From a virus: a stretch of 64,000 nt of DNA. Under the pieces are notes generated by a model. The model had not been told where the DNA came from. It did no database searches and worked only from the letters and a program-made list of their open reading frames with translations. Location: IMG/VR virus record IMGVR_UViG_3300009788_000087. One strand, written 5' to 3'. The position numbers were made by a program, and so were the translations under genes. Positions within the stretch are counted from its first letter, which is position 1. Each line of letters opens with the position of its first letter. Shown here piece by piece: positions 14,081 to 59,959 of the stretch.

Positions 14081-17000
14081 TTATCCCTCTACCTCATCCA
14101 CATTAATTAATGCACCATCTGCACTGTATTCACTGTGTGCCCATCCCGGTTTGCCAAGCACGAGATTCTGTGGTTCATCCAGCTTTCTATTGAAGGTGGC
14201 AAAGAATACATTACCCTTCACTGCTTTCTTCGCAATGTACCGCCAGATTGTTGCGAAGCACGGTGCGTCAAACTCAGTCCCATTTCTGTCACCGAACTTA
14301 ATGAATGCCATCATGCCACCACGAGACTGAGCACGTTCACGGACATCTTTAATGATTACAGGGATGACACCGATTTTATCCTCTGACTTCACAAACTCTT
14401 CAAAGTCTTGAACCATGCCTTCCTTAGCAAGTATCTCTATCTTCTTATCCCTATCGAATAGTTTGAATGGTGTACCAATAAGATTGAATCCAAGCAACTC
14501 ATTCTCATACTCTACAAGCTTAGCGATTGGATGCGGTTCACACTCAAGAGCAAAGTACTGCTCTTCAAATTCAGCTTTCTTTTTCTTGACGCGAAGCTTT
14601 GGATTGTCCTGCCACAATTCATACCTCAACTCAGTCAGCGCCATGTTCTCTTCCAATGAAGTAAACGCACCGACCTTGATAAGGGGAACCGTTGCAGTCT
14701 TACCACCGCCTGTCTTATAGAGATAATCACGTAGACTCTCATACGGTTGGCTCTTCTCAATCTTCTTAACAGCTGCGTCACCGACACCCAACGCAGAACC
14801 AAGTGCTAACCTGATCGCAACACCCTCAATCTTGTGAAAAGCACTCGATTTATTGATATCTACCGGCAGAATCTTAAATCCCTGACGCTTGATGTCGTCC
14901 ACATAAGATTGAAGATCATCTGCTTTACCATGAATTAGAAGTGCTGTAAAGAATTCAAGTGGATAGTATGTTCGAAGGAATGCAGTCTGCATGGAGATCA
15001 TAGCATAGCACTTGGCATGACTGGCATTGAAACCATATCCACCAAAGTGCTCGAACATATTCCATAGTTCAAGACCCTGCTTCTCAGTCAATCCATTCTC
15101 TACACATCCCTTAACGAATGGTTCTCTTAGCTCCTTCTTCTCGTTCTGAAGGAAGTCATCCTTCTTTGACTTGTCTTTCTTTAGGAACAGCTTCCTAAGT
15201 CTGTTGACATGTGTCATCGGTAGCTTACCGAGGTGGTGACCGATGTTTAACATCTGTTCCTGATATACAAGACAACCGTAAGTCTCCTTCATGATCTCTT
15301 CCATCATGGGATGCACATATTTGATCTTGTCAGGGTTGTGTTTGTTCTCAGCGTATAGCTTATGCATGCCTGAACCAAGTGGTCCCGGTCTATAGATCGC
15401 ACCGATCGCTGACACGTCATTGAAGCAGTCAGGTTTAATCCGTTGAGCTACTTTCCTGATACCTTTGTTTGTAAACTGAAATATGCCCGTGAAATTCCCG
15501 TCGATGAAGACTGTCTTGATTACTTTCTGATCATCGATGTCCATGTACGTTGGATCGACCATCTTATATGCTTCATCATAATTCATGTCATGTCGTTTAG
15601 ATATTAGCCTAAGTGCACGGTCGATGACCGATAGAGTTGAAAGCGACAGTATGTCAAACTTGACAAATCCCATCGCTGAACATTGCTTGTTAACAATCCC
15701 GTCAGTGAACGATGTTTGTAGAACTCCTTTATTCTGGAATAGAGCCATCTCTCGAGGTAGGTTGTCTCCGATAACGAGGCCACAAGCATGACGTCCCACG
15801 TGACGATTCTTCCCATACAACTTAGTGATATTTTCACCGATGACGGGATACTTCTCGACGAGAGCTCTGTAAGTAGGAGAGACTCTAACGACATCTTCGT
15901 ACTTGATGTCGATGGTGGACTTGTCTTGGCCTTTACCTCGCAAGACTCGAAGCTCGCCCTCGATTTTCTTGTTTGCCTTGTTGATCTCTCGATGGTCGAT
16001 ATCATAGACACGTGCTATATCCTTGAGTAGTCCCTTAATTTGGAATGTACCGTATGTGCTGATGCAAGCGACGTTGTCGTGACCGAACATCTCACGGAGC
16101 ATTTCGCGCGCTTGCTCGCTATCTTGAAAATCAGTATCAATGTCAGGAAGCTCGACACGGGAAGGGTTAATAAATCGCTCGAATAGAAGATTATGTTTAA
16201 TGGGATCGAGATCTGTGAGACCACTGAGGTAACAAACAAGAGAACCAGCAGCACTACCACGTCCCGGTCCCACGAGCATTTGCTCTTTGGCTTTGGTAAT
16301 GATGTCACGCATAATGAGGAAGTATGAGGCAAAACCCTTCTCCTTAATCAGCTTCATTTCATGCATGAAGCGTTTACGATACTGCTCATCATCAGTGAGG
16401 TTCAGCTCTTTCATCCTCGCAATGGCCACCTCACCCAGTTTCTTGAATGGATGCTCGAACCTACACGTTGGAAGCCTCTCTTCCGTATTAGGTTCATAGT
16501 CTTCAACCATCGAGTCAATGAGCAGTGTATTTTCAAATGCCTCACGAACAAGATTTGCATCTGCATCGCCACCAAAGCGCTCGAATGTTTCCCACATCTC
16601 TTGAGGTGACTTAATGTAGAGCTGCTTGATATTAAAATCCCAGTCATCTCCTCTTGTCGACATCGTCTTCTGACTGCGAAGCATGTAAAGAATTTCCTGC
16701 GCAGCCCACTCGTCTGAGTTCACGTAGTGTGAATCGCATGTTACATTGAGCGGGATTCCAGTCTCATGATGCACTTTGATAATAGACTCGTTGATAAATC
16801 GCTGAGAATCAGACTCGTTGAACTGCAGCTCAAGGAAGAATCTGTCACCGAAGATCTCCTTATATTCTTCAGCTTCACGAACGACATCACTCCACTCAGC
16901 GTCACCGTTCTTCCATGCCCAGCACCTATTAGCAATGACTCCGCCCATGCACGCTGAAGACGCGATGACTCCGTTACCGAAATCATTCATCATCCTCTTA

Positions 17001-17464
17001 TCGATCCTCGGCTTCATGTACATGCCCTCCTTGTGCGCAAGGTGTGTGAGGTTGTACAAGTTATCGAGACCCGCCTGATTCTGTGCTATGAGAACAAGGT
17101 GACCTTTCCTATAGAGAGACTTCTGTCTACTCTTCATATCGAGATTGGTAGCATCTTCATCTACCGCCTCAGACTTCTTTAGCTTCTTCAGTGACTCCTT
17201 GTCGGACTCTAACTTTGCTTTCTCTTCTGACCACTTCTTTAGATCATCAATCGCATATGCTTCAACACCGTAGATTGTGCGGACTCCATGTTTCTTTCCA
17301 TGCAGATAAAAATCTGCAATACCATGCATATGCCCATGATCAGTTAGTGCAATAGAGCAAAGACCTTTCTCCTTCGCTTTAAGGACCATGTCTTCAGGTC
17401 GAGACAGACCATCCATGAAACTGAAGTGGGAGTGATTGTGCAGACTAGCAAAATCTTTTATCAT
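14081..17464 (-). CDS. dnaE: DNA polymerase III alpha subunit
   Basis: PHP HNHSHFSFMDG, GPGRGSAAGSLV, PDIDTDF, KFDILSL, VYQEQ, YGFNASHA, C-terminal OB fold; no intein. Confidence 0.97.
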   Translation of the reverse strand: MIKDFASLHNHSHFSFMDGLSRPEDMVLKAKEKGLCSIALTDHGHMHGIADFYLHGKKHGVRTIYGVEAYAIDDLKKWSEEKAKLESDKESLKKLKKSEAVDEDATNLDMKSRQKSLYRKGHLVLIAQNQAGLDNLYNLTHLAHKEGMYMKPRIDKRMMNDFGNGVIASSACMGGVIANRCWAWKNGDAEWSDVVREAEEYKEIFGDRFFLELQFNESDSQRFINESIIKVHHETGIPLNVTCDSHYVNSDEWAAQEILYMLRSQKTMSTRGDDWDFNIKQLYIKSPQEMWETFERFGGDADANLVREAFENTLLIDSMVEDYEPNTEERLPTCRFEHPFKKLGEVAIARMKELNLTDDEQYRKRFMHEMKLIKEKGFASYFLIMRDIITKAKEQMLVGPGRGSAAGSLVCYLSGLTDLDPIKHNLLFERFINPSRVELPDIDTDFQDSEQAREMLREMFGHDNVACISTYGTFQIKGLLKDIARVYDIDHREINKANKKIEGELRVLRGKGQDKSTIDIKYEDVVRVSPTYRALVEKYPVIGENITKLYGKNRHVGRHACGLVIGDNLPREMALFQNKGVLQTSFTDGIVNKQCSAMGFVKFDILSLSTLSVIDRALRLISKRHDMNYDEAYKMVDPTYMDIDDQKVIKTVFIDGNFTGIFQFTNKGIRKVAQRIKPDCFNDVSAIGAIYRPGPLGSGMHKLYAENKHNPDKIKYVHPMMEEIMKETYGCLVYQEQMLNIGHHLGKLPMTHVNRLRKLFLKKDKSKKDDFLQNEKKELREPFVKGCVENGLTEKQGLELWNMFEHFGGYGFNASHAKCYAMISMQTAFLRTYYPLEFFTALLIHGKADDLQSYVDDIKRQGFKILPVDINKSSAFHKIEGVAIRLALGSALGVGDAAVKKIEKSQPYESLRDYLYKTGGGKTATVPLIKVGAFTSLEENMALTELRYELWQDNPKLRVKKKKAEFEEQYFALECEPHPIAKLVEYENELLGFNLIGTPFKLFDRDKKIEILAKEGMVQDFEEFVKSEDKIGVIPVIIKDVRERAQSRGGMMAFIKFGDRNGTEFDAPCFATIWRYIAKKAVKGNVFFATFNRKLDEPQNLVLGKPGWAHSEYSADGALINVDEVEG

Positions 17465-28366: not shown

Positions 28367-28885
28367 TTATCTGTTAGTCTTTTTGTGGTGTAGTCTGTCT
28401 ATACAGGTCCATAGAAATGGGTGTGATTCGGACGTCATGTCGTTCCCTGTATAGTACTTCTCGAAACCTATTGCCCAGTACTCTGCAACATCGCTTTTGA
28501 TGCGTGCGTGTACCATAGATCCTGAGAGCATGACCCACTCTCCCACGAGTAGAGGGTCTCCCGAAAACCAGTCGGTTTCCTCATCCACGTGGTGTCCAAC
28601 CTCATGTATAAAAATCTGATCCAGTCGGTCACAATATTCTTTGTTGCAACCTACTCGGATCTTGCCATCACAATAGTCACCTTCAAGTTTTGACTTTAGG
28701 TATGTGAAGTAAATCTCTTTTAGGCCTGAGGTGTGTGAGAGCGGAAATTGAATCTCCTCCATCTTCGACATTAATACTGTCAGCAGGCCTTTAGGCACTT
28801 GTTTGTGGAACTTTATCAGCGTGTCCGACTTGTTTAAGAGAGTGAACGTCCCGTTCTTGTTCTCCACTGCGTTCCACGATTCCAT
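28367..28885 (-). CDS. HExxH metallopeptidase-like protein
   Basis: IFIHEVGHHVD and downstream AEYWA..FE. Confidence 0.6.
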   Translation of the reverse strand: MESWNAVENKNGTFTLLNKSDTLIKFHKQVPKGLLTVLMSKMEEIQFPLSHTSGLKEIYFTYLKSKLEGDYCDGKIRVGCNKEYCDRLDQIFIHEVGHHVDEETDWFSGDPLLVGEWVMLSGSMVHARIKSDVAEYWAIGFEKYYTGNDMTSESHPFLWTCIDRLHHKKTNR

Positions 28886-29764: not shown

Positions 29765-32700
29765 TTATTTCTCTTCCTCATCCTCTGGCGGAATCTCTTT
29801 ATTATTGACACGATTAAACTGAGCAGTCGACCAAGGAGAAGACTGCGCGCCGCGGCCAGCAGCATAGTGACCCATGCCCGACATCGACATGCTAGTGCCT
29901 GGAGGGGCGCCAAGCTCAGCAATGAATCGTTCAGCGAGCTTTCTTGATGCATGCTCCAACACATCGGGCTCTGCACCAGGTGAATTAGATTTACCTAGAT
30001 CATTGATTATATAATGAGAACCCCGCTTCATCACATTACCACTGTGATAATCAGCGAATTCGATATTGTGTTGTCTCAATTCAGCATGCATTTCAGGAAT
30101 GTTGTATTTCTTTAAGAGATTTATATTGAACCCATACTGTCTCGTTGTAGCCTTTCTAATCTTATTTGCACCCTTGGGATCATTTGGATCTACACCAAGT
30201 TCTTTTGCAGCTTCCTCTTTATATTTTTCATAGAGAGCATTTTCAAACTCTTCCCATGATTTTGTTGCAACAATCTCGATAAGATCATCATGCTCTCCCA
30301 TAAAATCAGTTGCTCTATCAACATCACGTTTTTCAGTAGCGCTAAGTTCTGTCAACTTCTCTGTTACAATACCGTAGATTAATGGCTCCTCTCCAGGAAA
30401 TCTGAATACATCAAAGATCTTTACGACGTGTTGTAAAGCTGTTTTTCCTTTGAGCGAATTGCTGGTCACTGCTTCTCGTGCATCTGTCGTGACTTTAAGA
30501 ACTTTTCCTCCGCCTGCATCAAATGCAATACCCATCGCTCCATGACCAAGATATCCGAGTGATGACGCATTAATACCAGTTCTCTCTTTTAGTTTATCAG
30601 CGTTCACTATCACGATCTTTTCAAGATTATCAATGCCCACTGACTCTAGATCTGGGGATTTTTCTACTTCTGCTTCAGTGATTGCTTCCTGGATAGAGAT
30701 AACATCTTTCATCTCTTCACGCATGTCATCATAGATGTTATCAAACCCCTGTGGATCTGAGATAACGTGTGCGTCGAGCATCTTCTCAACGGTGTTCCTG
30801 TCATTCTTGGCAAGTGCGTCGCGAATTGCAGTGGATGATATTCTTTCCATGTCATCCATGTCATTCTTCACACCAGGAAGTTTCGTGACATTAACGAGTG
30901 CTGGATCGAAGTTGGGTAGATTCTCCCTGTTTGCAGCTGCATGCTGCATCTGTTTCTTCATGCTCTCGAATCTATCGGGACCGACAAGCACGTTGATAGC
31001 AATTTCGGGTTCAATGGATGAATTGTGATCGTTGATAATGTCAGACAACACGCCTGGAATGTAGCCGCTGGCTTTACCTTCCCACTCAGCCACATACACT
31101 TCAACCTTCGGCATGACATCAGGTAGAGATCTTTGCATCATCTCTACTCTTGTCTCGTATGACCACGGATTCTTCTTGTCTCTCTTGTTTCCTGCTACAA
31201 TGACCACGACCTTTGTGAACTTTGATGCTAGGTCACGGATGATCGCTGCATGTCCTTTATGGAAAGGCTGGAAGCGACCGATAGTCACGCCGATAGTGTC
31301 TGCTGGGTTGTAGTTTGGTTCTTCAAACATGCTCTTCACAACTTCAGACACTATGTTATCAACGGTATTCATTGATTCTGAAACTTGAACGCCTGGAACA
31401 TATTCCTTTACCCAATTCGCTGCCCCACGTGAACCGAAATCGTCGTTATCAGCATCCCAATCTTCGAAGTCATGAGAAAGAATCTTCGCATTCGGGGCAG
31501 CTTTCCTAAAGAAATCGACGAGCGCATTCCAATGTATATGAGACAAACCACCACTTTCCAGATCAGAAATATTATGCACTTCTTTCATGTCAGGTGTAAT
31601 TGTTACCATCGCTCCACGATTTTTTAAAACTGGATTATCTCCCTTGTGTAAGACCCATAAGTCTGCACGTTTTGCCAGCATGTCGGGATCATGACCCGTA
31701 TTGCGCCACTCATATCCACCATCTATTTTTACAGCGCTTCTTGAATCACCTCCAGTGATGAATCCAACAAATTTTTCATTTTCCTTAGAACGAAGAAGTT
31801 CCTCATCATTAAGTTCTGATTTTGTTTTGTTGAAGAACTCTTTCACATACTTCCAATATTTTTGATCAGGAGCTCTATTCTCTTTTCCTTTTATCTGAAG
31901 AACTGTTTTATTTGCTTCATTCCACGTCATCGTCACGTGTGGTTTATTGCTTGGATCACGAAGCGAAATTAAATTGCCACGTTCATCTTCACCACAGTGT
32001 CCCATTTTTTCAGCTTCATGAGGGCATGACGATTTCTTAAGATCAGTCCAATAAAAACCATCAGGAAATTCAATGATAGCATTGCTTTTATCTCGCTCTG
32101 CCGAAGCATCATCTGCAATCGTTTCAATTGTATTAAAGTCTTTTGCTGCCTGTATTTTCTTGGCTAGATGTGGTTTTTTCTTCAAAGTAGAAAGAAGATT
32201 TGAACCAAAATCCTCCATAAATTCATCGACTCTATCTTTTCTTTTTCCCAACTTAAAGCGCTGAATATTAGGTGGAAGCTGATCGTCGATGGTGAGAGAT
32301 TCGACAAAGTCGTCATCCCATTTTTCACCATAAAGTTTAAACGCTGTAGCAAGTGCAAAAGTATGTTTTTTATCTATCTCATAGAAATGATCAGCTGCCC
32401 ATTTTGGAAACTTAAGAAGCCTCGTAATATTTCCACGTGAGTCTTCATCGATCATGCCGACAGTGTCCGCCTCATTGGCGGTCTGATCACTACCGGCTTC
32501 TAGAAAAATAGAATAAACCTGTTCTCGAATGATTGACTCAAGCACATCGGGTTCTTCTCCACCTTGGACATCTGAAAGACCAATGTCAATCAAGACATAT
32601 TCGCCTCCCCTCTTCATGAGGTTTTCACCTCGATAATCAGAGAATGAAATGCCTTTTCCTTTCAATTCCTCCCATGAAGACTTTACTTTGTATTCATTTT

Positions 32701-35700
32701 CAAGCTTGTCAAGGATTTCAGTCGCCCAGTTTTTTGCAATCCTACCCTCTTTAGATGCAGGATCACCACCACCCTTCTTCTTTACAGCATGTCGTATTGA
32801 TTCCTTAACAGCTTCTTCCCATGTCTTAGCTCTTTTAAGCCAGATAGGAAGACCAGTAAAGACCAGCATGTTGTCAAATTTATCTGATTCTTCTTTTGAT
32901 AGTGGTTCAAGTTTTTCCTGTATGATCCCGTATGCTTGAAGATCTTTAAACCTGAAGACGTCGATTATTGCAGCGACATGTTTCATGGTCATGCCTTTGA
33001 TCTTGTTGGACGCTATAGCTTCTTTTGAGTCCTTCGTGACCTTAAGAACCTTGCGGCCACCAACATCAAAAGCAGTACCCTGTGTTCCTTTACCTAGTTC
33101 TTTTGCAGTGGAAACATCAATGAGCTTCTTTGTCTTGAGTAGATCAGCATTCCTCTCGAGGATCTTCTTTGCATCTGCTGGATTGGAAGGATCTAGTCCC
33201 ACAAGTCCAGTCTCTGGATCGTCCAATGGTTTTGAACCAGGTTCATCATCAGCTTTCGCACCTAGTTTATCTCCTTTGCGGCGACCGACGGCACTTGGTT
33301 CATCAGGAGGACCAAACAACTCATCACCCAAAGCTTCAGTTAATTTCTCTACTAAAGAATTGATACTATCTTTTTTCATCTCACCAAATGCCTCACAAAG
33401 CTTGAACCATCTCACCCTTCCAAGTGCAGTTCTAATCATGTTGAGAGGAGAGAAATCCTCAGTCATAACTTCTTCGCGGATCCATGTATCCACTGAGAAG
33501 AACTCATTATCTGTCCTCTCCACGATTATCGGATGCATTGCGATCTTGTAGATGTGGCTCTCAAATACCGGTAGAGGCTGCGTCTTCCACGCCTCAGCAA
33601 GCTTAGAAAACCTGTAGATTGTAGCATTTGCAGTCTCAAGATACCTCTCTTTGTATCCCTCACTGAAAAGCTTGTTGTCATTGCAGAACTTGCTGAGTGC
33701 CTCGCCGAGTGATAGATTTCCGTAGTGCCTCTTCATGTATCCCACAATTGCTGGAATCTTGAGAGTCTTGGATCCAATGACATGCTCCGCAACTTTGTTT
33801 CTAAACTCTTTGGTCAGACCTGGAGTCCAGACGCCATCTTCTTTCAATCCCTTACCGAGTTGCTCGCGGTGGCGCCACATGGTTTTGTTAAGTTCAGTGA
33901 AGAGATGGCGGTTGACAACTTTGACCATCTCATTTGTCAGCGTGTTTCGAATGACAATGCCCTCGACAATCTTCCCGCCAAAGTGTGGAAAGATCATGGC
34001 AACGTGTGTCATGAGATGTTCTTCAATTACATGTCGTTCTTTCACCACAGGAAGCATGAATTTTCCAACTGGAACACACTCAAACATCCAACCGTCAAGC
34101 TTGACAGCTTCCGTGAGACGCTTGAATTCCTCAGACGTGTTGTGCAACACGATGGCATTTGGCCCATACTCCAACACATTGGGTACAGGACCGTCTAGAA
34201 TCTCACAGGTGACGCTCAGTGCTCCTGCAGGCCAGTTTGATATGATGGCCTCAGCCTGAGATTCAAGAGCCTCATGCGCCCTCTGGAGAGACGAGATGGC
34301 ACGGCTATTTGGCCAGTCTCTCGAGTCCATGACGGGCCCATAGTTCTTTGACTTGGTCCACAGGGTTCCTTCCTTGACACCGAACTCCATGAAGGCTGAA
34401 CCGTCAAGCTTCTCGGTAATTTCAGCATTTCCTGCACGCCAGGCCTCGATGAACTCCCAGAATTTCTCTTCCTTTAGATTACCGATGTGCGGAATGCCTT
34501 TTCCCATAGTGCTAATTGTATAACACTCAGGACGCAAAGTATCTGCTTTTTTGCTTTCTGTAAATTCTTTTGGAAGAGTACCACGATCATTCCTCTTATC
34601 ATACCAATCTCCTTTATTGTTACCAGAACGATGAAGTTTTTCCATGTCCTCTTCTACTATAATTTTAACATTATTTGAACCATGGTTTATTACAATGTAT
34701 TCTTGCTCTTCGTCTCTATAGTCTGTAGATAATCTTCTCGTATAATAGTTTATCAAGTTATCAAACCATGAAACAGTATGTTTTGGACCAGATATTAATA
34801 TATCAGGTTTGTCTTTCAGTTCTAATATGTATCCAATACCTTCTTCGTTTCTATCAACACCGTATGCATTTGCTATATTTGCAAACCTGAGAGCCGCGTG
34901 TGGTTGTGTTGTCCAGCTACTAAATGCTCCAACTGTTGGTAATGCCAGCACAGAACCTTCACCATTTCCGATTCTTTTCTTTAACACTAATCCACGATAT
35001 AGTGGTGGTAGACTTGTGGTAGTAAAAATTTCTTTGCGCGCTTGTGGATTTTGATATAGGAATTTAACATTTTCGACTGTCGTTTTTTTACCTGCTTCTT
35101 TGATTGCCTCCTTGCCCCATACCCACATAACGACTTCATTTAACATACCAATAAGCGTCTTTTGCCCGTAGCGTGACATAAATGATTTAGCTTCTTTTAT
35201 CTCACTGTCATTTAATTTAGAAAACGCTTTTCCAAGCTGTTGTTTGCCAACGACGGCAGCGGCCTCATTGGTAATCTTTCCGCCTGGCTCCGCAAGTTTC
35301 TGCTTGAACTGGTCCACTGGCATCTGAGACATGCCGCCAAAGAAACCCTCATCATCATAGTGCTTGAGGTAGGCAGCTTTCGCTTCATCAGCACATCCAA
35401 AACCGAGCATGCACTTGTCTTCATCGTGTTCAATGAAGTCAGGCTTCGTCATCTGGTGCACGACATAGACCCACTCAGCATCCTCGTCATCACCGATATA
35501 GACATCTACTGGATCGTCATCGGTGCCCTCAGTTTCCTCGACATAGCCGTAGTCATGCTGCATCTTGGTCTTGCCAGTCTTGCCGTCACTGTCAGTCCAC
35601 TCACGTGAAGAACCCTTTGACTGCTCTATAGAGATTGGGATATCCTGAAATGTATACCTGTCATCGAGCTTGAAACCTTCTTCGTTGTAACCTAGATCTT

Positions 35701-37288
35701 CTACGCCACAACCCATCTGTTCTGCATAGCCATCGAGCTTCTCTACTTCAACGTCAGGTTCTGCGTGTTCTTTGAGAAAATCAAGGACATCAGGATCTGG
35801 ATCTGACATAAAGATCTTTTCAATGTAATTCATCGCGAGCTTGTCGTTCTTCTTTAATTTTTCGATGAATGACTTTGTCTTTTTGTAATCGAACCACTCT
35901 TCTCCACTGGGTTTTTCAAGACTCGACTTGTCAATTGAATCAATACGTTTTATACTAACGGCGGCATATGGGTTTGCAGAAACTTTCTTCAGTAGTTCTA
36001 TCGTTGCGCGTTCGATACCAAATGGATCATCTTCATTGTCGTCAAATTTCTTTCTAACCTTATCGACTTCAAACTGTATGGCACTCATGTCGATCTCATA
36101 ATTTGCATCATCTGTTACGACGATGTTAACCACGTGACCTGGTATACGCTTTACGTATGCTTCGAAACCGGACTCATTAGCTGCTTTTGCAAACGCTGGT
36201 GATATACCTGAACATACTTTAACGGCACGTGAACATACCATTAATTGAAAGACGACAACAGGGATTGCTTCCTTTAGCCACGATTTTAAATCAGATGTAC
36301 TCTTTCCTTCCTTGAGCCTAGGATTCTTTGCGATTTTTATACGTGGATCAATCTCACCAGTCCGTGTCATGAGCAACGGATCTTCAGGGTCTGCATCGTG
36401 GATAGGTTCTGTGAGTTGTGGGCCTATCGATACTTCATTGGTAGAATTTTCGATTGAAGATTGAGTCTTTTTAAGAAAAGCATTTATATATTTCCAGTAT
36501 TTTTTATCTGGATCTTTACTTTGCTTTCCTGCAATTTCTGTAACGAGTTTTGTTTTTTCATCCCATGTCATTGTAACATGTGGACTATCATTTTGATCGC
36601 GGAGTGAAAACATTTCACCCTTAGATTGAACCTGACCACAATGCTGCATGAGCCCGCCTTCTAATGAACATGCATCAAATCCACTCACGCTAGAAAGGTT
36701 TGACCAATAAAACCCATCTGGAAACTGCATAAAAATTTCATCTCTTATTGCTTTACTTCTTTTCTTGTCAAGAGATATATTGGTAAAAATCTGGTCTATT
36801 GTTTTTTCATCATTAGCGTTGTTTATTTTTTTTGCCACAGATGGATTCAATTCAAGCATCTCTATATATCTCTTTCCACCCTCATCGCCGTCGTCGTCAC
36901 TCCAATGTTCATATACTATTTCAATATCTTCTTCACTCATGTTATTACTAACATGTTTTATTTTAAAAATCTTTGCTAATGCAAAAGCTATCTTTGGATT
37001 AATCTCATTAAGATCATCAGCAATACTTCTTGGAAGCTTTAATAGCTTAACGATAGAACCACGAGAATCTTCTCTTAATTTATCAGAGAATGCCTCATCT
37101 TGCAACTCGGGTCTCTCATCGGGATCCTTAATCATACCTCCAAGTGGATATGACTTTGCAAACATACCCCTAGAACGCCCGCCGCCAGGACCTGATTTGT
37201 TTACAGTCTGTGTGGTAGCAGCATTTTTATGTCCAGTGAGCTCTAAGAGTTGCTCACGGATGATCTTGTCGAGATAACTGAGAGACAT
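29765..37288 (-). CDS. 2507-aa polyvalent multi-enzyme protein (2x PcfJ-like, transglutaminase-like, pyrophosphatase-like, ART, ligase-like, 2x kinase-like, HIGH nucleotidyltransferase)
   Basis: MQHCG/SLRD..PH (x2), VCSG..GHVV..IDMS, DYGYV..TEGTDDDPVDV, LYRG..SSWT..EQEY, EKLDGS..EGIV, G.G..G/LKVT/D.xxxN/D.G (x2), GRFQPFHKGH..SSTAIR. Confidence 0.85.
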   Translation of the reverse strand: MSLSYLDKIIREQLLELTGHKNAATTQTVNKSGPGGGRSRGMFAKSYPLGGMIKDPDERPELQDEAFSDKLREDSRGSIVKLLKLPRSIADDLNEINPKIAFALAKIFKIKHVSNNMSEEDIEIVYEHWSDDDGDEGGKRYIEMLELNPSVAKKINNANDEKTIDQIFTNISLDKKRSKAIRDEIFMQFPDGFYWSNLSSVSGFDACSLEGGLMQHCGQVQSKGEMFSLRDQNDSPHVTMTWDEKTKLVTEIAGKQSKDPDKKYWKYINAFLKKTQSSIENSTNEVSIGPQLTEPIHDADPEDPLLMTRTGEIDPRIKIAKNPRLKEGKSTSDLKSWLKEAIPVVVFQLMVCSRAVKVCSGISPAFAKAANESGFEAYVKRIPGHVVNIVVTDDANYEIDMSAIQFEVDKVRKKFDDNEDDPFGIERATIELLKKVSANPYAAVSIKRIDSIDKSSLEKPSGEEWFDYKKTKSFIEKLKKNDKLAMNYIEKIFMSDPDPDVLDFLKEHAEPDVEVEKLDGYAEQMGCGVEDLGYNEEGFKLDDRYTFQDIPISIEQSKGSSREWTDSDGKTGKTKMQHDYGYVEETEGTDDDPVDVYIGDDEDAEWVYVVHQMTKPDFIEHDEDKCMLGFGCADEAKAAYLKHYDDEGFFGGMSQMPVDQFKQKLAEPGGKITNEAAAVVGKQQLGKAFSKLNDSEIKEAKSFMSRYGQKTLIGMLNEVVMWVWGKEAIKEAGKKTTVENVKFLYQNPQARKEIFTTTSLPPLYRGLVLKKRIGNGEGSVLALPTVGAFSSWTTQPHAALRFANIANAYGVDRNEEGIGYILELKDKPDILISGPKHTVSWFDNLINYYTRRLSTDYRDEEQEYIVINHGSNNVKIIVEEDMEKLHRSGNNKGDWYDKRNDRGTLPKEFTESKKADTLRPECYTISTMGKGIPHIGNLKEEKFWEFIEAWRAGNAEITEKLDGSAFMEFGVKEGTLWTKSKNYGPVMDSRDWPNSRAISSLQRAHEALESQAEAIISNWPAGALSVTCEILDGPVPNVLEYGPNAIVLHNTSEEFKRLTEAVKLDGWMFECVPVGKFMLPVVKERHVIEEHLMTHVAMIFPHFGGKIVEGIVIRNTLTNEMVKVVNRHLFTELNKTMWRHREQLGKGLKEDGVWTPGLTKEFRNKVAEHVIGSKTLKIPAIVGYMKRHYGNLSLGEALSKFCNDNKLFSEGYKERYLETANATIYRFSKLAEAWKTQPLPVFESHIYKIAMHPIIVERTDNEFFSVDTWIREEVMTEDFSPLNMIRTALGRVRWFKLCEAFGEMKKDSINSLVEKLTEALGDELFGPPDEPSAVGRRKGDKLGAKADDEPGSKPLDDPETGLVGLDPSNPADAKKILERNADLLKTKKLIDVSTAKELGKGTQGTAFDVGGRKVLKVTKDSKEAIASNKIKGMTMKHVAAIIDVFRFKDLQAYGIIQEKLEPLSKEESDKFDNMLVFTGLPIWLKRAKTWEEAVKESIRHAVKKKGGGDPASKEGRIAKNWATEILDKLENEYKVKSSWEELKGKGISFSDYRGENLMKRGGEYVLIDIGLSDVQGGEEPDVLESIIREQVYSIFLEAGSDQTANEADTVGMIDEDSRGNITRLLKFPKWAADHFYEIDKKHTFALATAFKLYGEKWDDDFVESLTIDDQLPPNIQRFKLGKRKDRVDEFMEDFGSNLLSTLKKKPHLAKKIQAAKDFNTIETIADDASAERDKSNAIIEFPDGFYWTDLKKSSCPHEAEKMGHCGEDERGNLISLRDPSNKPHVTMTWNEANKTVLQIKGKENRAPDQKYWKYVKEFFNKTKSELNDEELLRSKENEKFVGFITGGDSRSAVKIDGGYEWRNTGHDPDMLAKRADLWVLHKGDNPVLKNRGAMVTITPDMKEVHNISDLESGGLSHIHWNALVDFFRKAAPNAKILSHDFEDWDADNDDFGSRGAANWVKEYVPGVQVSESMNTVDNIVSEVVKSMFEEPNYNPADTIGVTIGRFQPFHKGHAAIIRDLASKFTKVVVIVAGNKRDKKNPWSYETRVEMMQRSLPDVMPKVEVYVAEWEGKASGYIPGVLSDIINDHNSSIEPEIAINVLVGPDRFESMKKQMQHAAANRENLPNFDPALVNVTKLPGVKNDMDDMERISSTAIRDALAKNDRNTVEKMLDAHVISDPQGFDNIYDDMREEMKDVISIQEAITEAEVEKSPDLESVGIDNLEKIVIVNADKLKERTGINASSLGYLGHGAMGIAFDAGGGKVLKVTTDAREAVTSNSLKGKTALQHVVKIFDVFRFPGEEPLIYGIVTEKLTELSATEKRDVDRATDFMGEHDDLIEIVATKSWEEFENALYEKYKEEAAKELGVDPNDPKGANKIRKATTRQYGFNINLLKKYNIPEMHAELRQHNIEFADYHSGNVMKRGSHYIINDLGKSNSPGAEPDVLEHASRKLAERFIAELGAPPGTSMSMSGMGHYAAGRGAQSSPWSTAQFNRVNNKEIPPEDEEEK

Positions 37289-37291
37289 CTA

Positions 37292-37663
37292 TCACTCCAC
37301 TAGAGTCGGCACTCGGCGGCGAACTTCGTCTTCGATGTCTTGTCGACGATCGACTTTCTCAATGATTTCAAGAGTCTTTTCCTGTGTCTCAACAACTCGG
37401 TCAAGGTGTTTGGCTACACTTGCTAGGTGCTCAGCCATTTTCTCTTGGTGGTTTTTCATGTCACTAATATCCCTCTCAATCATGATATTGTTTGTATGAA
37501 CCTTTTCATAGGTTTCTCTAATCTGTCTTGAAACTTCAGGATGCAAGTGTATCGGCGACTTTCCGTTTTTCTTCGTATCCCATCTCTTAATAAAGAAATC
37601 GATTACTTTCGATAAAGCAATGATTACGGTAACGAGAGCAGCGACTGTTCCTGGGGAATCCAT
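37292..37663 (-). CDS. N-terminally anchored membrane protein with coiled coil (holin-like, uncertain)
   Basis: One TM helix then basic patch and long heptad-rich helix. Confidence 0.55.
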   Translation of the reverse strand: MDSPGTVAALVTVIIALSKVIDFFIKRWDTKKNGKSPIHLHPEVSRQIRETYEKVHTNNIMIERDISDMKNHQEKMAEHLASVAKHLDRVVETQEKTLEIIEKVDRRQDIEDEVRRRVPTLVE

Positions 37664-38330: not shown

Positions 38331-39527
38331 TTACTCTCCGTACAGACGGTGACCGTAGCTAGCCTTTGATGTCTTCTGTTCTTTTACTTTCTTACCACCA
38401 AGCTGCTGAAACTTGCTCAACTCCTTGATTCTACCATCCGGCCCCTTCATCCCACCAATAAGAGTATACACGTTTAAACGAGGTTTCTCATCTTCGTACA
38501 CACCACGGTGCATCATTGCGTCACCTGTCAACATAGCAAGAGTATCGAAACCTTCTTCGATTGCTGTGTTGTCTAATTCCTCGAGGATTGACGAACCGCC
38601 AAGAACAACGGCTGCAGCGTGTGATGCAGATGTTAGATCAAATCCACCTGCTAACAGAGTCTTGCTAAGATTGCTCTTCAGTGCAGCAGACACAGAACCG
38701 CTGTCGTCGAGATTCTTCACAGACGTGACACCCATGATCATGCAGCCGCCGCTGCGCATGACTGACATGTAATCTGCTGTGTCGAATGTTGTATATTCAG
38801 TCGGCTTCTTCGTGATGATATTGAACACGTGGAAGAGACCCGCCACTGTTGCATTGACAGTTGGCCAGAAACTCTTAACTGAGAGCTTCGGATACATCTT
38901 CTTTATCTTATCATTGTCGATGAATATAAGTGGACTAACGAGCTTCTTGTCTGCGTAGCCGACTAGTGTCTTTGAAAGCAGTTCGGCATTTTCAGCAACT
39001 GCCTTTGACGCTGACTCACCCGCAGTTGGAAGCGTCATGATTACACCGACACGCTGGTCTGCGTTTGGTTGTCCAATGTGAGTGAGATATAACTTAGCAG
39101 TCTCCACGAGAACAAGTGTTGAGCCGCCACCTGATCCACCACCAGCACCGACACAGATCATGATGTGATCGACTGGTCCAAACTTCTTCTTCATGAGGTC
39201 GAGTATCTGTTGCTGTGAACCAGCTGCTGCAGACTCTCCCTTCGCCATGTCTTTTCCAGCACCCTGCTCTCCTGCATTGAGAAGCACCTTCTGATCTTCT
39301 GGCACATCAACTTTGCTGAGATCTTGTATCGCAGTATTCACGCACAGTGTCTTCTTGTAGCCAAGTTTATAGAATGCCTGAGCTAGCCGACAGCCTCCCT
39401 GACCTGAACCGAGGAATGCATATGTCACAGCACCGCCGGACTCGTCTTCTAGGGACTCATCCTCATATTCTTCTAACTCTGCTTCTAATGGCAGATCAGG
39501 AATTTCGATGTCAAATTCTTCACTCAT
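38331..39527 (-). CDS. tubulin/FtsZ family GTPase (PhuZ/TubZ-like)
   Basis: GSGQGGCRL, VNT, GAGKD, GAGGGSGGG signature, IDND, TFDTADY T7-loop-like segment. Confidence 0.92.
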   Translation of the reverse strand: MSEEFDIEIPDLPLEAELEEYEDESLEDESGGAVTYAFLGSGQGGCRLAQAFYKLGYKKTLCVNTAIQDLSKVDVPEDQKVLLNAGEQGAGKDMAKGESAAAGSQQQILDLMKKKFGPVDHIMICVGAGGGSGGGSTLVLVETAKLYLTHIGQPNADQRVGVIMTLPTAGESASKAVAENAELLSKTLVGYADKKLVSPLIFIDNDKIKKMYPKLSVKSFWPTVNATVAGLFHVFNIITKKPTEYTTFDTADYMSVMRSGGCMIMGVTSVKNLDDSGSVSAALKSNLSKTLLAGGFDLTSASHAAAVVLGGSSILEELDNTAIEEGFDTLAMLTGDAMMHRGVYEDEKPRLNVYTLIGGMKGPDGRIKELSKFQQLGGKKVKEQKTSKASYGHRLYGE

Positions 39528-40171
39528 GTTCCACTTCCTCCAGTCGATGGGCCAAACTGAACATCTCCTCTCGTCCCGAACGGGTCAAACTCACCTATAC
39601 CGTGAGTCTTCTCTTTCTTATTATCTTTTGATTCCCATCTCTTTGTATGGAGCAATCGCACTTTATTTGGATCGATATGCCTGATTATTTTAGCAGAACC
39701 ATCAACAAGTACTTCGACCATGTCGGACGCGTCTCTTTTCTTTGACATACTTGATGGATCACCCTTCCAATATTCTTCTGCATATGCACGGGCTTCTTTT
39801 GATTTAAAGTCTGCTTCTGTCCAATATTCCATGTTTGTATAAAATACTTTACCAGTCACTTCAACCTGATAGACATCATTGAAATTATCTTCAGACCATA
39901 TGTCACTTGCCCATGATATTGCTGCGTATATACTTGGAAATACCAGTTTACTTCCTAATCGTGATGGTCGATCTGGCCATTTTTCTTTTCTCACTTGATC
40001 AAATAATTGTTCTTGTTCTTCCATGCCTCTAACACCATTGAATGTTGGAACTTGCATGCCTGGCTCAAATTTAGTAGAACCCTCCGCGGGGTTTGATACC
40101 CAAAAAAAACTCTTATTAGCTGAAACGTTTTCAAGTTTCTCTATAATATAAATTTCTTTAAGAGTGATCAT
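39524..40171 (-). CDS. DUF2441-like protein (ADP-ribosyltransferase-like fold)
   Basis: E.LF..VR..KWPDRPSR....F...AA..W...VY.VE; start MITLKEIY at 40171 coupled to upstream TAA. Confidence 0.55.
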   Translation of the reverse strand: MITLKEIYIIEKLENVSANKSFFWVSNPAEGSTKFEPGMQVPTFNGVRGMEEQEQLFDQVRKEKWPDRPSRLGSKLVFPSIYAAISWASDIWSEDNFNDVYQVEVTGKVFYTNMEYWTEADFKSKEARAYAEEYWKGDPSSMSKKRDASDMVEVLVDGSAKIIRHIDPNKVRLLHTKRWESKDNKKEKTHGIGEFDPFGTRGDVQFGPSTGGSGT

Positions 40172-40629
40172 TAACCCGATTCCCATGTTCCAGGAGGATA
40201 ATCATAATATACTTTTTTTTCTCCTGGACTATAGTTGGCTAATTCCCCTTGTCCGCCATCTGCTTTTGGATCCCAAATCCAAACAGGATCATCCTTAATT
40301 GGGCCAGCTTCAGCCCAAAGAGTCTCGTCTTTTTCAACAAAAACCCAATCTGACGGATCTGGATTAACTTCTTCATGCTCTATGGATGTCCAATACTTAG
40401 CAAAATCTGGAAATTTAGAAGTTACATCACCCCATGATAGTTTCTTTGCAGGAGAATTGTATACGTCATCTATTCCTTTCGGTGATGTCCTAGTAGACAC
40501 AGGTTGTGACCTCTTTGTCCAAGGATCTGCTTTGCCTGTCGGCTTCCTCTTTCCAGCTGGATCATCAAACTTACCCCAAGGGAAGTCAGCTTCCCAAAGA
40601 CGTCTGTATATTTTCTTTAGTCTTATCAT
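40171..40629 (-). CDS. hypothetical protein, paralogous N-terminus with 63383..63850
   Basis: MIRLKKIYRRLWEADFPWGKF.DP.GK. Confidence 0.7.
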   Translation of the reverse strand: MIRLKKIYRRLWEADFPWGKFDDPAGKRKPTGKADPWTKRSQPVSTRTSPKGIDDVYNSPAKKLSWGDVTSKFPDFAKYWTSIEHEEVNPDPSDWVFVEKDETLWAEAGPIKDDPVWIWDPKADGGQGELANYSPGEKKVYYDYPPGTWESG

Positions 40630-42427: not shown

Positions 42428-42727
42428 TCAGCTATCACGGCTTTCTCTTTCTTCGACAAGTTTCTGTGCAAAATACCTAATGAAGTCTGTCTCAAAGAAC
42501 TCCATGGCTGCTTCGAACACAAGCTCCTCAGACTGATCGACATATGATACATCTACCTGAGGATAGTGTAAACACCATAATGTTAGTGGGTTTCCTTCTG
42601 GATCCTTTGGATCCCTGACATCATCCTTGTGTAGACGATATTCTGCTTTTACCTCAGCACCCTTCACACACATTTTTGCTGAGTCTTGTCTAACCAAATT
42701 CTCGAGGTTTAGTTGAAAGTCAATCAT
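42428..42727 (-). CDS. hypothetical protein
   Basis: 99-aa ORF overlapping the polymerase stop. Confidence 0.6.
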   Translation of the reverse strand: MIDFQLNLENLVRQDSAKMCVKGAEVKAEYRLHKDDVRDPKDPEGNPLTLWCLHYPQVDVSYVDQSEELVFEAAMEFFETDFIRYFAQKLVEERESRDS

Positions 42728-44177
42728 TTTGATCCCAATAGTTTAGACCCGATTTTACCTTAACTTTCAGTCTCATTCCGAAAAGTCTAGCTGAACCGAG
42801 TTCCATTATGTCTCGCATCTCATCGAGGTACTCCATCTCGTCTGGATGCATATCGATAACTAGCTCATCATGCACAGTGAATAGCATCACTGATTTCTTG
42901 TCCTGAAGAAAATCATGTAGACTTACGATTGAATCCATGAACACATCACTTGTGCAAGTCTGTGCATAAAGAGCGAGCACTTTGCCTGGATGTTCTGATC
43001 CATTCAGATCAATTTTCATGTCATCTGGTGTAATTACATACCCTTGATTCATTGATTCAGAATACATCTTCTCTCTGAAGAACACGATTGGTGCGAATAG
43101 TTCATTGAGTTTCTCAACGAGAACTCCTACTTTCTCACTCGACAAACCAGTTGTCTTTGGCAGATTCTTCAATGATCCACCGTAAAGTCGTGTATACGTG
43201 ATTGTCTTTAGAACACGTCGTCTGATACCAGATGTGTCATGGAACTCGTTATCTCCAAAGATATACTCTACAGTTCTATCGTGAAAATCGTCGCATCCTT
43301 CATAGTATGCGTTAAGGTTCTCATCGTCAACTGATGCTACAATGCACCTATAATCCGCAGCGTTGAAATCGAAGGTTGCAATCTTGCCGCCATCAAATCT
43401 ACTGACGATACTCTGACGTACATGGTTTCTTGGTATATTCATGCATTTGAAAGAACCTTTCGCTGTATGGACTCTTCCGGTCTTGGTTCTTTGTGGTATG
43501 AACTTGTTATAGACATATGATCCAGACATCTTGTCTCTGATGTGTTGGATGAATGCCAAATCGTGTGTTGTCATGCCTGCATCAAGATCAATATTATCAG
43601 GGTCTACGTGCACACTATTTTCTTCCATGAGATATAGGACACGTGCTCTATCATAACCAAAAGATCGAAACTGTTCACTATCAAACTTCTTCACCAGTGT
43701 ATTGACCATCCAGTTTCTTAATCTATAGAATGATATTACCACCTTACTTGGGATTATATCAATGAGAGAGTGTTCGTCAAGATTAATCTTCGCTGTTTTA
43801 CATGCCTTGATATGTGAATTGTACTCATGTCTTCCTGCAAGATACTCAACGACATCAGCATCTTTGATATGCTTATTGACTGCTTTGTACAGGTTTTCCT
43901 CACCTGCCATCACTGACACATCTATCACATCACAGTATCTCTTGAAATTACAACCAAGCTTAAGCACATCACGCATGTCAAAACAGATCTTCTCATGCTT
44001 GTGAGAGAAGATCTCATGAATGAAACCATCGAATTCGTCCCAGTCGTTATTCAGGACAAAATAATGATCTGCACCAAAGGATAGAGAAATGCCTTTGACT
44101 CCGGTCGAGTCCTTCACTGCTTCGAAAGTGAACCCTTCATTCTGGGCTCTCTTCTTCAGAGTCTCCAAATGCGCCAT
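42720..44177 (-). CDS. family A DNA polymerase-like protein (polymerase domain, divergent)
   Basis: TGR, motif A FDFNAADYR, DFH, motif B RRVLKTITYTRLYG, motif C VHDEL; probable ATG at 44177. Confidence 0.85.
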   Translation of the reverse strand: MAHLETLKKRAQNEGFTFEAVKDSTGVKGISLSFGADHYFVLNNDWDEFDGFIHEIFSHKHEKICFDMRDVLKLGCNFKRYCDVIDVSVMAGEENLYKAVNKHIKDADVVEYLAGRHEYNSHIKACKTAKINLDEHSLIDIIPSKVVISFYRLRNWMVNTLVKKFDSEQFRSFGYDRARVLYLMEENSVHVDPDNIDLDAGMTTHDLAFIQHIRDKMSGSYVYNKFIPQRTKTGRVHTAKGSFKCMNIPRNHVRQSIVSRFDGGKIATFDFNAADYRCIVASVDDENLNAYYEGCDDFHDRTVEYIFGDNEFHDTSGIRRRVLKTITYTRLYGGSLKNLPKTTGLSSEKVGVLVEKLNELFAPIVFFREKMYSESMNQGYVITPDDMKIDLNGSEHPGKVLALYAQTCTSDVFMDSIVSLHDFLQDKKSVMLFTVHDELVIDMHPDEMEYLDEMRDIMELGSARLFGMRLKVKVKSGLNYWDQND

Positions 44178-44184
44178 CTCCTTT

Positions 44185-44193
44185 ATTATAACA
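44185..44193 (-). promoter_or_regulatory. extended -10 promoter, probable leaderless start of the PolA-like gene
   Basis: TGT-TATAAT then 7 nt to ATG 44177. Confidence 0.5.
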
Positions 44194-44233
44194 CATCTCT
44201 GTGCCAATTAATACTAAGTATGACACAAAAGTG

Positions 44234-59074: not shown

Positions 59075-59959
59075 CTAACTAGGGAGCGTATAGTATGTCT
59101 TAAGAATTGCTCCTGGAGAGAAAATCTCATCAAGTTCATCTTCACTATCCACAAAACAAACGTTTTCATCTGAGAACTTGATATCAAAAGCAGTTTTTTC
59201 AGTTTGAATAGCAGGACGTGTACCCTGCGGGTCAAGTTGAAGGTATGTCGGAACTGTCACGTTGAAAGAATATTTCACGATTCTCTCTTGATCTGTGAAT
59301 TCTTCGAAGTTCCCAGCGTCTGTGAGGCTAGTGTCGATTAATCCGATGAAGTAATAACCTTTGAGCGGATCTTTATTTTCGAATTCGACACCTTGACTCG
59401 ACTTATTCTCGAACTTACTCCTGTAAAGAGGTGCGACGAATTGGTTCTGTATATCAAGTGCATTGAAGATTTTCTCAACAATCTTATTCATCTGCAGGAT
59501 ATACTGAGCTTGGATTGTTACTTCGTATGTAGTCACGAACCAGTCTGGCATCGGTATCTTCGTTAGTTCATAGACGATTTTTCCACTTCTATCCTGGTTC
59601 GGCAACGTGCGTGAACTGATTGCATTCTGCACGACACTAGTCTTCTTGTCTACTCTCCTCGCAATTGTTAGGTTTGCTTGTTCAGTACCAAGAGCCATCA
59701 TCGACCTATCACGTTCCATGGAAGTGCGTCTAACACTAACGAGAGGGAGTATCAGAAGACCATTTTTGTCTCTCAGTCCGCGCTGATCTCGAGCTGTCGA
59801 CCATCTCTCACCTGATGCGAAGATAACAGGTACTTTCTTGAGTTCTCGAGTAGGCGTCTCAACGAATGCATCAACAGAACGATCGAACCAATCATAAATT
59901 GATTGATCGACATCTTCTATCGTAATGTCTTGATATTCTGTTCTCTCGTCAGTTGACAT
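59075..59959 (-). CDS. tail terminator / completion protein (gp15-like)
   Basis: VPVIFASGERW, G.LILPL.S..RT, P.PD...TYE, between neck and sheath genes. Confidence 0.65.
   Translation of the reverse strand: MSTDERTEYQDITIEDVDQSIYDWFDRSVDAFVETPTRELKKVPVIFASGERWSTARDQRGLRDKNGLLILPLVSVRRTSMERDRSMMALGTEQANLTIARRVDKKTSVVQNAISSRTLPNQDRSGKIVYELTKIPMPDWFVTTYEVTIQAQYILQMNKIVEKIFNALDIQNQFVAPLYRSKFENKSSQGVEFENKDPLKGYYFIGLIDTSLTDAGNFEEFTDQERIVKYSFNVTVPTYLQLDPQGTRPAIQTEKTAFDIKFSDENVCFVDSEDELDEIFSPGAILKTYYTLPS

Follow-up and report, generated by a model that had tools for sequence, protein, structure and literature searches.

Polyvalent proteins are single polypeptides of phages and plasmids in which 2-15 unrelated domains of the conflict type are joined (Iyer et al. 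2017, PMC5512222). ADP-ribosyltransferases (ARTs) packaged in the phage head have been found among such polyvalent effectors (PMC9503650, PMC5512222), Alt of phage T4 is both packaged and injected (PMC9503650), and the T4 capsid targeting sequence is the sole conserved feature of the diverse internal proteins by which this phage counters host defence (PMC3012670). RNA ligase, kinase, pyrophosphatase and NAD+ functions also co-occur in phage RNA-repair neighbourhoods (PMC9503650). Here a gene of comparable complexity is described from an uncultured virus, IMG/VR record IMGVR_UViG_3300009788_000087, of which a stretch of 64,000 nucleotides (the window) was analysed. The gene (29765..37288, minus strand) encodes a protein of 2507 amino acids (aa), P0001, which holds about ten catalytic domains. 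We interpret it, with a probability of roughly 0.6, as a polyvalent multi-enzyme protein of a T4-superfamily phage, consisting of a conserved core of two enzyme pairs and of added domains, and acting at the very start of infection.

The gene and the parts of its product, from the N- to the C-terminus, are as follows:

29765..37288, minus strand: whole gene of the 2507-aa polyvalent protein P0001, a single uninterrupted open reading frame (ORF) with an ATG start
37241..37288, minus strand: N-terminal amphipathic helix (aa 1-16) ending in I-R-E / L-L-E, leader-like (capsid-targeting-like) by a relaxed leader pattern, with a putative function only
37133..37207, minus strand: Gly/Arg-rich linker (aa 28-52), where S-Y-P-L-G represents the family motif PGYP(V/L)P
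36410..37108, minus strand: PcfJ-like domain 1 (aa 61-293), with the conserved E..M.HCG, HCG at 216-218
35765..36328, minus strand: transglutaminase/papain-like thiol enzyme domain (aa 321-508), triad C359-H385-D400
35264..35668, minus strand: InPase, a type I pyrophosphatase of the polyvalent-protein type (about aa 541-675, PF18823), D-D-D-P-V-D at 590
34634..35071, minus strand: R-S-E ADP-ribosyltransferase-like region (aa 740-885), R765, S790, E861-Q-E863
33254..34546, minus strand: putative Rnl1-like RNA ligase with a helical C-terminal part (aa 915-1345), RNA_lig_T4_1 match below threshold
32477..33193, minus strand: kinase-like domain K1 (aa 1366-1604), of the ligase-linked clade
31748..32476, minus strand: PcfJ-like domain 2 (aa 1605-1847), HCG at 1764
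31319..31747, minus strand: segment without a family (aa 1848-1990)
30656..31318, minus strand: HIGH-motif nucleotidyltransferase, NMNAT-like (aa 1991-2211, PF01467)
29903..30658, minus strand: kinase-like domain K2 (aa 2211-2462), of a clade of kinases always placed after the nucleotidyltransferase
29768..29902, minus strand: C-terminal tail (aa 2463-2507), with the family-wide Q-S-S-P-W-S at 2482

A preliminary description of this DNA had proposed one 2507-aa ORF with about nine enzyme-like domains, and both proposals are borne out. The frame starts with ATG and has no internal stop, and all nine domains were recovered where they had been placed, the approximate nucleotide ranges agreeing with the mapped amino acid positions. 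The strength of the assignments is graded: strong for the InPase and the NMNAT-like HIGH nucleotidyltransferase, good for the two kinase-like domains, the Rnl1-like ligase, the two PcfJ-like domains and the Cys-His-Asp transglutaminase-like domain, and moderate for the R-S-E ART.

The 2507-residue protein is genuine and not chimeric. That the giant ORF might be an assembly chimera, named beforehand as one of the findings that would overturn the proposal, or a string of fused pseudogenes, has next to no probability: its unusual length is the sole ground for suspicion, and no support for an artefact was found. The same protein is recorded on three contigs, the longest of up to 196 kb, and a stretch of 9.5 kb (the gene with 1 kb flanks) is base-for-base equal in the independent ENA and JGI assemblies; since the DNA is identical across three independent assemblies, a chimera is excluded within the limits of sequence data. 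GC content and skew stay uniform along the whole gene, the catalytic residues are unbroken in all domains, and the orthologues are syntenic. Cultured phages gave no nucleotide matches, and protein matches to them were confined to the InPase and the nucleotidyltransferase.

A family search covering 5.8 billion proteins returned twelve multidomain relatives of P0001, to which IMG/VR added further ones. With the profiles built here, the core ligase-kinase(1-4)-nucleotidyltransferase-kinase was found in about 20 proteins, and these relatives belong to syntenic, uncultured T4-superfamily phages of about 190 kb. The minimal kinase is present in each protein in two to five diverged copies. A tree of 55 kinase domains unites the kinases located after the nucleotidyltransferase in a single clade (17 tips, support 0.78) and places K1 of P0001 in another, with nine kinases that are mostly ligase-linked (support 0.85); the core thus consists of two conserved pairs, ligase-kinase and nucleotidyltransferase-kinase. 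The ends of the protein are family-wide too, with an N-terminal helix, a Gly/Arg-rich stretch carrying P-G-Y-P-V-P (PGYP(V/L)P is present near the N-terminus in at least 10 of 19 members) and a C-terminal S-S-P-W-S.

Other parts of the chain vary. The PcfJ-like, transglutaminase-like and ART domains occur only in P0001 among the family, and the InPase is variably present, at several positions. One slot, between the kinases and the nucleotidyltransferase, holds an SLT lytic transglycosylase in the relative P0011, the second PcfJ-like domain in P0001 and an InPase in P0008. In the relative P0013 the ligase is immediately preceded by a 2H/LigT phosphoesterase; the survey of polyvalent proteins states that the 2H domains it covers are never found together with RNA ligases (PMC5512222). 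The PcfJ-like, transglutaminase-like and kinase modules are also found elsewhere as stand-alone genes.

The first core pair begins with a region (aa 915-1345) that is predicted with good confidence to be an Rnl1-like RNA ligase. It carries motif I EKLDGS at 959 (K960), motif IV EGIV at 1109 and the motif V lysine in VKVVNR at 1122, and KxDG, EG and the motif V lysine are invariant in an alignment of five ligase sequences. Sub-threshold matches to RNA_lig_T4_1 (PF09511) were obtained for four of these five family domains (P0001 and three of four relatives).

K1 and K2 are, with good confidence, predicted to be minimal protein-kinase-like domains. Self-comparison of P0001 aligns them as an internal repeat (aa 1358-1600 against 2212-2461, 38% identity). 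K1 has the G-loop GKGTQG at 1399, the lysine of KVLKVT at 1413, DYRGEN at 1551 and IDIG at 1567, the equivalents in K2 being GHGAMG at 2248, KVLKVT at 2262, DYHSGN at 2413 and NDLG at 2429; G-x-G, the strand-3 lysine, D-x4-N and D-x-G are invariant over 18 kinase copies from six proteins. The weak database matches of these domains are almost all protein kinases, the family profile aligns with the N-lobe of T7 gp0.7 (hhalign probability 82%, E 1e-5), and Kinase-PolyVal (PF18762) was matched by one of the 18 copies (E 0.047). The domain stops about 35 residues past D-x-G and stand-alone genes stop at the same point, indicating a domain without the usual C-terminal kinase lobe; the same loss has been described for the kinases of polyvalent proteins (PMC5512222). 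In two viral contigs (L018:1351-3994 and L019:26-8012), four or five stand-alone minimal-kinase genes of about 210-300 aa each lie side by side.

The second pair starts with a strongly predicted NMNAT-like HIGH nucleotidyltransferase (aa 1991-2211). It matches PF01467 (E 7e-14) and carries GRFQPFHKGH at 2004 and ISSTAIR at 2150, motifs which we take to be of the NMNAT type. The best matches of its profile among solved proteins were the archaeal NMNAT MJ0541 (2e-11) and NadM (1.5e-9). The preceding segment (aa 1848-1990) has no Pfam match, and its alignment with relatives is limited to the last ~70 residues, as a linker before the nucleotidyltransferase.

Among the added domains, the InPase is the clearest. 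PF18823 was matched over aa 543-665 (E 2e-33, 115.6 bits against a cut-off of 26.8), and the acidic metal site D-x-D-P-x-D is present as the D-D-D-P-V-D listed above. The same domain is located at the C-terminus of a solved phage portal (PDB 9b41) and of Serratia phage portals.

The two PcfJ-like domains form another internal repeat (aa 73-281 against 1613-1828, 37% identity) and share the signature E..M.HCG ... SLRD ... GKQN. Members of this family are often stand-alone proteins of about 240 aa. Neither P0001 copy matched Pfam PcfJ (PF14284) directly; 14 of 27 aligned PcfJ-like relatives did (best E 3.6e-5), and a P0001 copy found a plasmid 'PcfJ domain-containing protein' by tblastn (E 3e-4). 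The literature search for 'PcfJ' turned up only names of C. elegans plasmids. Several large proteins (P0033, P0034, P0049, P0073 and P0098) have two or three PcfJ-like domains in tandem and start with M-x-K-(L/I)-x-R-L-Y-(K/R), resembling a leader, and in P0161 a PcfJ-like domain is fused to a kinase.

The region aa 321-508 is assigned with good confidence to a putative Cys-His-Asp transglutaminase-like thiol enzyme. C359, H385 and D400 are invariant across 33 sequences of this family, which comprises stand-alone proteins of about 180 aa; together with the PcfJ-like domains it gave 679 representative matches in the homologue search. In an AlphaFold2 (AF2) model made with the family alignment (predicted local distance difference test, pLDDT, 84.5), the cysteine opens the helix 75-88 and the histidine and the aspartate are placed on the strands 101-107 and 112-116. 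Fold comparison returned matches of modest score (Z 4-6.5) and uniform kind: arylamine N-acetyltransferases, transglutaminases, TglA, SseI, Pasteurella toxin C3, protein-glutaminase, LapG and Cif. Matches in the ESM atlas were Transglut_core clusters (TM 0.33-0.41). The sequence profile matched nothing in Pfam or among PDB sequences, and Foldseek with the model found no match at E 0.001 or better in PDB and BFVD.

The region aa 740-885 is a probable R-S-E ADP-ribosyltransferase. In the alignment with the T4 ModA/ModB profile, which is weak (hhalign probability 14%) yet in register, R765, S790 and E861/E863 meet R72, S96 and E163/E165, with L-Y-R-G paired to P-L-W-R-G, F-S-S-W-T to V-S-A-S-Y and E-Q-E-Y-I-V to E-Q-E-V-M-I. 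The spacing of the R, S and E-Q-E motifs is nearly equal to that of ModA/ModB (25 and 71 residues here, 24 and 67 there). The named language-model neighbours, among the matches listed, are almost all ART families (DRAT, DUF4765/EspN, Mod_ADP_RT, ADPrib_exo_Tox, NarE and Lart1; 0.83-0.92). No homologues were found by word-based searches of shorter and similar-length proteins, IMG/VR and cultured phages (E up to 5), and Pfam gave no match up to E 10.

In this composition P0001 resembles the polyvalent proteins described earlier: it is very large, it joins many unrelated catalytic domains, its content varies strongly between orthologues, and it includes an InPase as defined there, a probable ART and kinase-like domains predicted to lack a C-terminal lobe (PMC5512222). 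The preliminary description had called it a polyvalent protein, a name justified by some ten catalytic domains that include the InPase, a hallmark of such proteins (PMC5512222). Unlike them, P0001 has no MuF, portal, DarB-helicase, ParB or LPD domains, its kinases are not convincingly PF18762, and its core is built of an Rnl1-like ligase, an NMNAT-like nucleotidyltransferase and tandem kinases in a T4-like phage (PMC5512222). The claim that the architecture had not been described holds as far as checked, PcfJ, NMNAT and transglutaminase being unmentioned in PMC5512222. Polyvalent proteins themselves are known; what is new relative to the description of 2017 is the core, the added PcfJ-like and transglutaminase-like domains, the T4-like setting and the link to a leader.

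The substrates, timing and packaging that we infer for P0001 would be the following. The protein probably acts at the onset of infection, either carried in from the capsid together with the DNA or produced early by other means. The ligase and its kinase (with 2H in a relative) might rejoin host or phage RNA that defence nucleases have cleaved. The kinase and nucleotidyltransferase of the second pair might rebuild NAD+ or another nucleotide-activated compound, and the InPase, by removing pyrophosphate, could pull the nucleotidyltransferase reaction forward. The ART, the kinases and the thiol enzyme may covalently modify host proteins, as do T4 Alt/Mod and T7 gp0.7, the chemistry of the thiol enzyme possibly being like that of bacterial deamidase or acyltransferase effectors. 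To the core of its clade the phage has added two PcfJ-like domains, a transglutaminase-like domain, an InPase and a probable T4 Mod-like ART.

Several of these activities have described counterparts from which P0001 departs in part. In comparison with T4 Alt, ModA and ModB, there is no match to Mod or Alt at the level of hidden Markov models, the ART is one bead in a 2507-aa chain, and the leader of P0001 is loose. The alignment of the kinase profile with T7 gp0.7 covers the Gly-loop, the lysine strand and the hinge, all in the N-lobe, and nothing beyond this lobe; the kinase here, of about 240 aa, ends soon past DxG and occurs in multiple copies or tandem genes. The Rnl1 motifs, the kinase right after the ligase and the 2H domain before the ligase in P0013 recall T4 Rnl1/Pnkp and the fungal and plant Trl1 (ligase-kinase-2H), although here the kinase is protein-kinase-like and not of the P-loop type, no phosphatase domain was seen, and an RNA substrate is only presumed. 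NadR pairs an NMNAT with a ribosylnicotinamide kinase, and phage examples of NAD+ salvage are the NMNAT of vibriophage KVP40 and NARP2-type pathways. P0001 is similar to NadR in pairing an NMNAT-type HxGH nucleotidyltransferase with a kinase, and differs from NadR and phage NAD+ salvage in that the kinase has another fold and no Nudix or Nampt partner is seen in the window.

The phage is an uncultured T4-superfamily myophage of about 190 kb. All genes of the window lie on the minus strand, among them those for the tail sheath, DnaE-type and family-A DNA polymerases, ribonucleotide reductase (RNR), DnaB, UvsX and SSB. The contigs of the same phage encode Gp23, gp13, gp15, the sheath, gp19, the T4 baseplate, the T4 portal, the large terminase and an S77 (gp21-type) prohead protease, with Pfam matches of head genes to PF03420, PF07068 and PF07230. 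The position of the orthologue is constant in every long contig, past the baseplate genes and a family-A polymerase fragment and ahead of SSB and UvsX; in the relatives the core gene is likewise located between the DNA_pol_A gene and SSB/UvsX.

In addition to a T4-type prohead protease, the phage shares with T4, in the manner of its internal proteins, many ORFs with short leaders that end in glutamate. About eleven otherwise unrelated small ORFs start with M-(I/K)-x-L-x-E-(I/V)-(Y/F)-x(1-4)-E, the leader ending in two hydrophobic residues and Glu. Five of them follow one another after the Gp23 capsid gene, two precede the portal gene, one lies in the neck module and three are within 3.4 kb upstream of the P0001 gene:

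37663..38325, minus strand: leader ORF of 220 aa, M-I-S-L-A-R-I-F-L-F-E/S (putative cut after E)
39524..40171, minus strand: leader ORF, M-I-T-L-K-E-I-Y-I-I-E/K (putative cut after E)
40171..40629, minus strand: leader ORF of 152 aa, M-I-R-L-K-K-I-Y-R-R-L-W-E/A (putative cut after E)
L007:8068-10000, L007:11678-12070, L025:1563-2508 and window 63383-63850: further leader ORFs

This shared leader resembles the T4 capsid targeting sequence and is a candidate capsid-targeting signal that might be cut by the S77 protease. Among 149 stand-alone relatives, 29 carry it (nearly all of these PcfJ-like, two transglutaminase-like), where 0.9% would be expected. A relaxed form fits three of 13 family N-termini (P0001, P0005 and P0013; about 0.1 expected), and good agreement with the leader is seen at the N-termini of P0005, P0010, P0012 and L012, that of L013 being similar.

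Delivery with the DNA is made plausible by these leader-like N-termini, by the SLT domain within the orthologue P0011 and by the InPases that are fused to portals and are present in packaged polyvalent proteins; the S77 prohead protease, T4 portal and Gp23 of the same phage also favour it. The preliminary description had spoken of a packaged effector cassette, and the leader ORFs, the prohead protease and the features just named uphold this indirectly only. Speaking against it, no MuF or portal anchor and no enrichment of protease-type sites in linkers was found. Delivery of the protein from the phage head is given about even odds.

Several points weigh against the reading as a polyvalent protein acting at the start of infection. 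The N-terminus of P0001 itself fits the leader loosely only. Searches of the whole protein and of pieces against Pfam and PHROGs found no MuF, portal or other known virion-anchor domain. A position-specific scoring matrix (PSSM) of the leader gave five matches inside the family proteins against 5.9 in shuffles, which is no excess, and protease-type sites (two hydrophobic residues and Glu) are about as frequent in linkers (0.0063 per residue) as in domain cores (0.0050). The V-L-E that follows each kinase is part of the kinase fold. The gene lies at the edge of the replication module, a place where cytoplasmic enzymes of early or middle infection are also expected, and stand-alone kinase genes of other phages mostly have no leader. 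As to the enzymes, the ligase match to RNA_lig_T4_1 (E 1.2e-5, 25.7 bits) is under the curated cut-off of 28.3, and the ligase profile retrieved no ligase among solved structures but only spurious protein A repeats. For the nucleotidyltransferase, the alignment to solved NMNATs is confined to the first ~60 residues. The ART call draws solely on motifs, their spacing and a language-model lead, and the single-sequence AF2 model of this region (pLDDT 35) is unusable. Finally, the capsid protein is at most 45% identical to that of any cultured phage, and there is no close cultured relative.

Part of the same evidence would suit an unpackaged cytoplasmic enzyme factory of early or middle infection, serving RNA repair, NAD+ or nucleotide metabolism and host protein modification, in which the domains are fused only for co-expression and channelling. 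The adjoining SSB, UvsX, DnaB and RNR genes, the missing MuF or portal anchor, the lack of enrichment of cleavage-type sites in linkers and the leaderless stand-alone kinase genes elsewhere are all consistent with it. However, a peptidoglycan-cutting SLT domain as in P0011 is ill-suited to a purely cytoplasmic protein, the InPase is of a type typical of virion-associated proteins, and leader-bearing ORFs lie just upstream while family N-termini are leader-like, so that we regard this alternative as tenable but somewhat unlikely. A polyprotein, cut into single domains or pairs by the S77 protease in the prohead or by an HExxH peptidase in the cell, is slightly less credible still and in our view unlikely. 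The phage encodes the S77 protease, six loci keep an ATLF-like peptidase next to the gene, the PcfJ-like, transglutaminase-like and kinase modules stand alone elsewhere, all five leader PSSM matches in the family fall at domain borders, and sites of two hydrophobic residues and Glu occur at some borders of P0001 (aa 877, where the ART ends; 1582 and 1595, behind K1; 1987, ahead of the nucleotidyltransferase). Against cleavage, these sites are not enriched over shuffles or domain cores, and the conservation of the neighbour may just mirror the general synteny of related phages. The count of [LIF]-x-E sites (55 seen, 39 expected) is not informative. The motif EPDVLE was considered as a linker cleavage site and discarded, as stand-alone kinases also end with this motif and its V-L-E, which belong to the kinase domain itself.

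The pairs of kinase and nucleotidyltransferase might instead make a nucleotide-activated small molecule (compare choline kinase/CCT and HldE) for the modification of phage DNA or surface and not for counter-defence. Among PHROGs, the nucleotidyltransferase is best matched by entries annotated 'cytidyltransferase' (E 1e-21), only its HxGH region aligns with NMNAT, the kinase is without the C-terminal lobe that binds protein substrates, the order nucleotidyltransferase-then-kinase is a conserved unit, and a pyrophosphatase is often present. We consider this improbable, given that the best solved matches and the motifs, as we assume, are of the NMNAT type and not of the CCT or PPAT type, and that conflict functions are suggested by the fusion to an ART and an RNA ligase and, in relatives, to SLT and 2H domains. 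The preferred reading, a polyvalent protein acting at the start of infection, might also be carried further, to a T4-superfamily 'cargo train': it would be loaded into the head by a T4-type leader and the prohead protease and not by a MuF or portal anchor, would have been built by fusing leader-bearing cargo genes (PcfJ-like, transglutaminase-like and kinase), and would have as its core an injected machine for RNA repair and NAD+ rebuilding, in which minimal enzymes of the protein-kinase fold serve as polynucleotide and riboside kinases. This extension is speculative and rather unlikely.

The immediate neighbours of the gene are the following:

37292..37663, minus strand: upstream neighbour of 123 aa with an N-terminal membrane helix, homologues of which are directly upstream of the orthologue in L001, L004 and L005
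28791..29714, minus strand: downstream neighbour of 307 aa, without a family, conserved
28367..28885, minus strand: downstream neighbour, a 172-aa HExxH zinc peptidase, ATLF-like, HEVGH at 94

The ATLF-like peptidase, two genes downstream, is kept in six related loci (the window and five with ATLF-annotated neighbours); its role may be to process the giant protein, or it may be an effector in its own right. As to expression signals, the T4 late promoter TATAAATA gave one match, on the wrong strand and at chance level, and a sigma-70 promoter scan was uninformative.

About 1 kb (two genes) upstream, a tubulin/TubZ homologue is encoded (38331-39527, minus strand; Pfam Tubulin E 1e-10, TubZ-like_C E 1e-4); such a gene is present in one related phage as well (L003:8334-9524), making two phages in all. 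The family-A DNA polymerase of the window (42720-44207, minus strand, PF00476) is a fragment of 495 aa with palm and fingers only, and a DnaE-like polymerase of 1127 aa (14081-17464, minus strand) is encoded by the same phage. Between neck and sheath genes, a protein of 289 aa is encoded (59949-60818, minus strand) that matches Trypsin_2 and has a membrane helix at its N-terminus. A gene of ribosomal protein bS21 (PF01165; L007:4553-4774) is located about 4.6 kb past the window end, upstream of the capsid gene and flanked by two ORFs of the head module without a family. The T4-type portal gene (L025:2517-5636, 1039 aa) contains an intein (PF14890), as does the RNR large subunit of the related phage L003.

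If the reading as a polyvalent protein of early infection is true, one injected or early protein would answer several major classes of bacterial defence, RNA ligation countering tRNA/anticodon nucleases and NAD+ resynthesis countering NAD+-depleting systems, and the same chain would bear the takeover chemistries of both T4 (ADP-ribosylation) and T7 (phosphorylation). The family offers a kinase that is both compact (about 240 residues) and highly duplicated, and the PcfJ-like and small Cys-His-Asp families are widespread, with many stand-alone members that carry a capsid-targeting-like leader. With domains exchanged at fixed slots in one gene, the family is a natural experiment in domain shuffling, and the concept of the polyvalent protein would be extended to T4-like phages.

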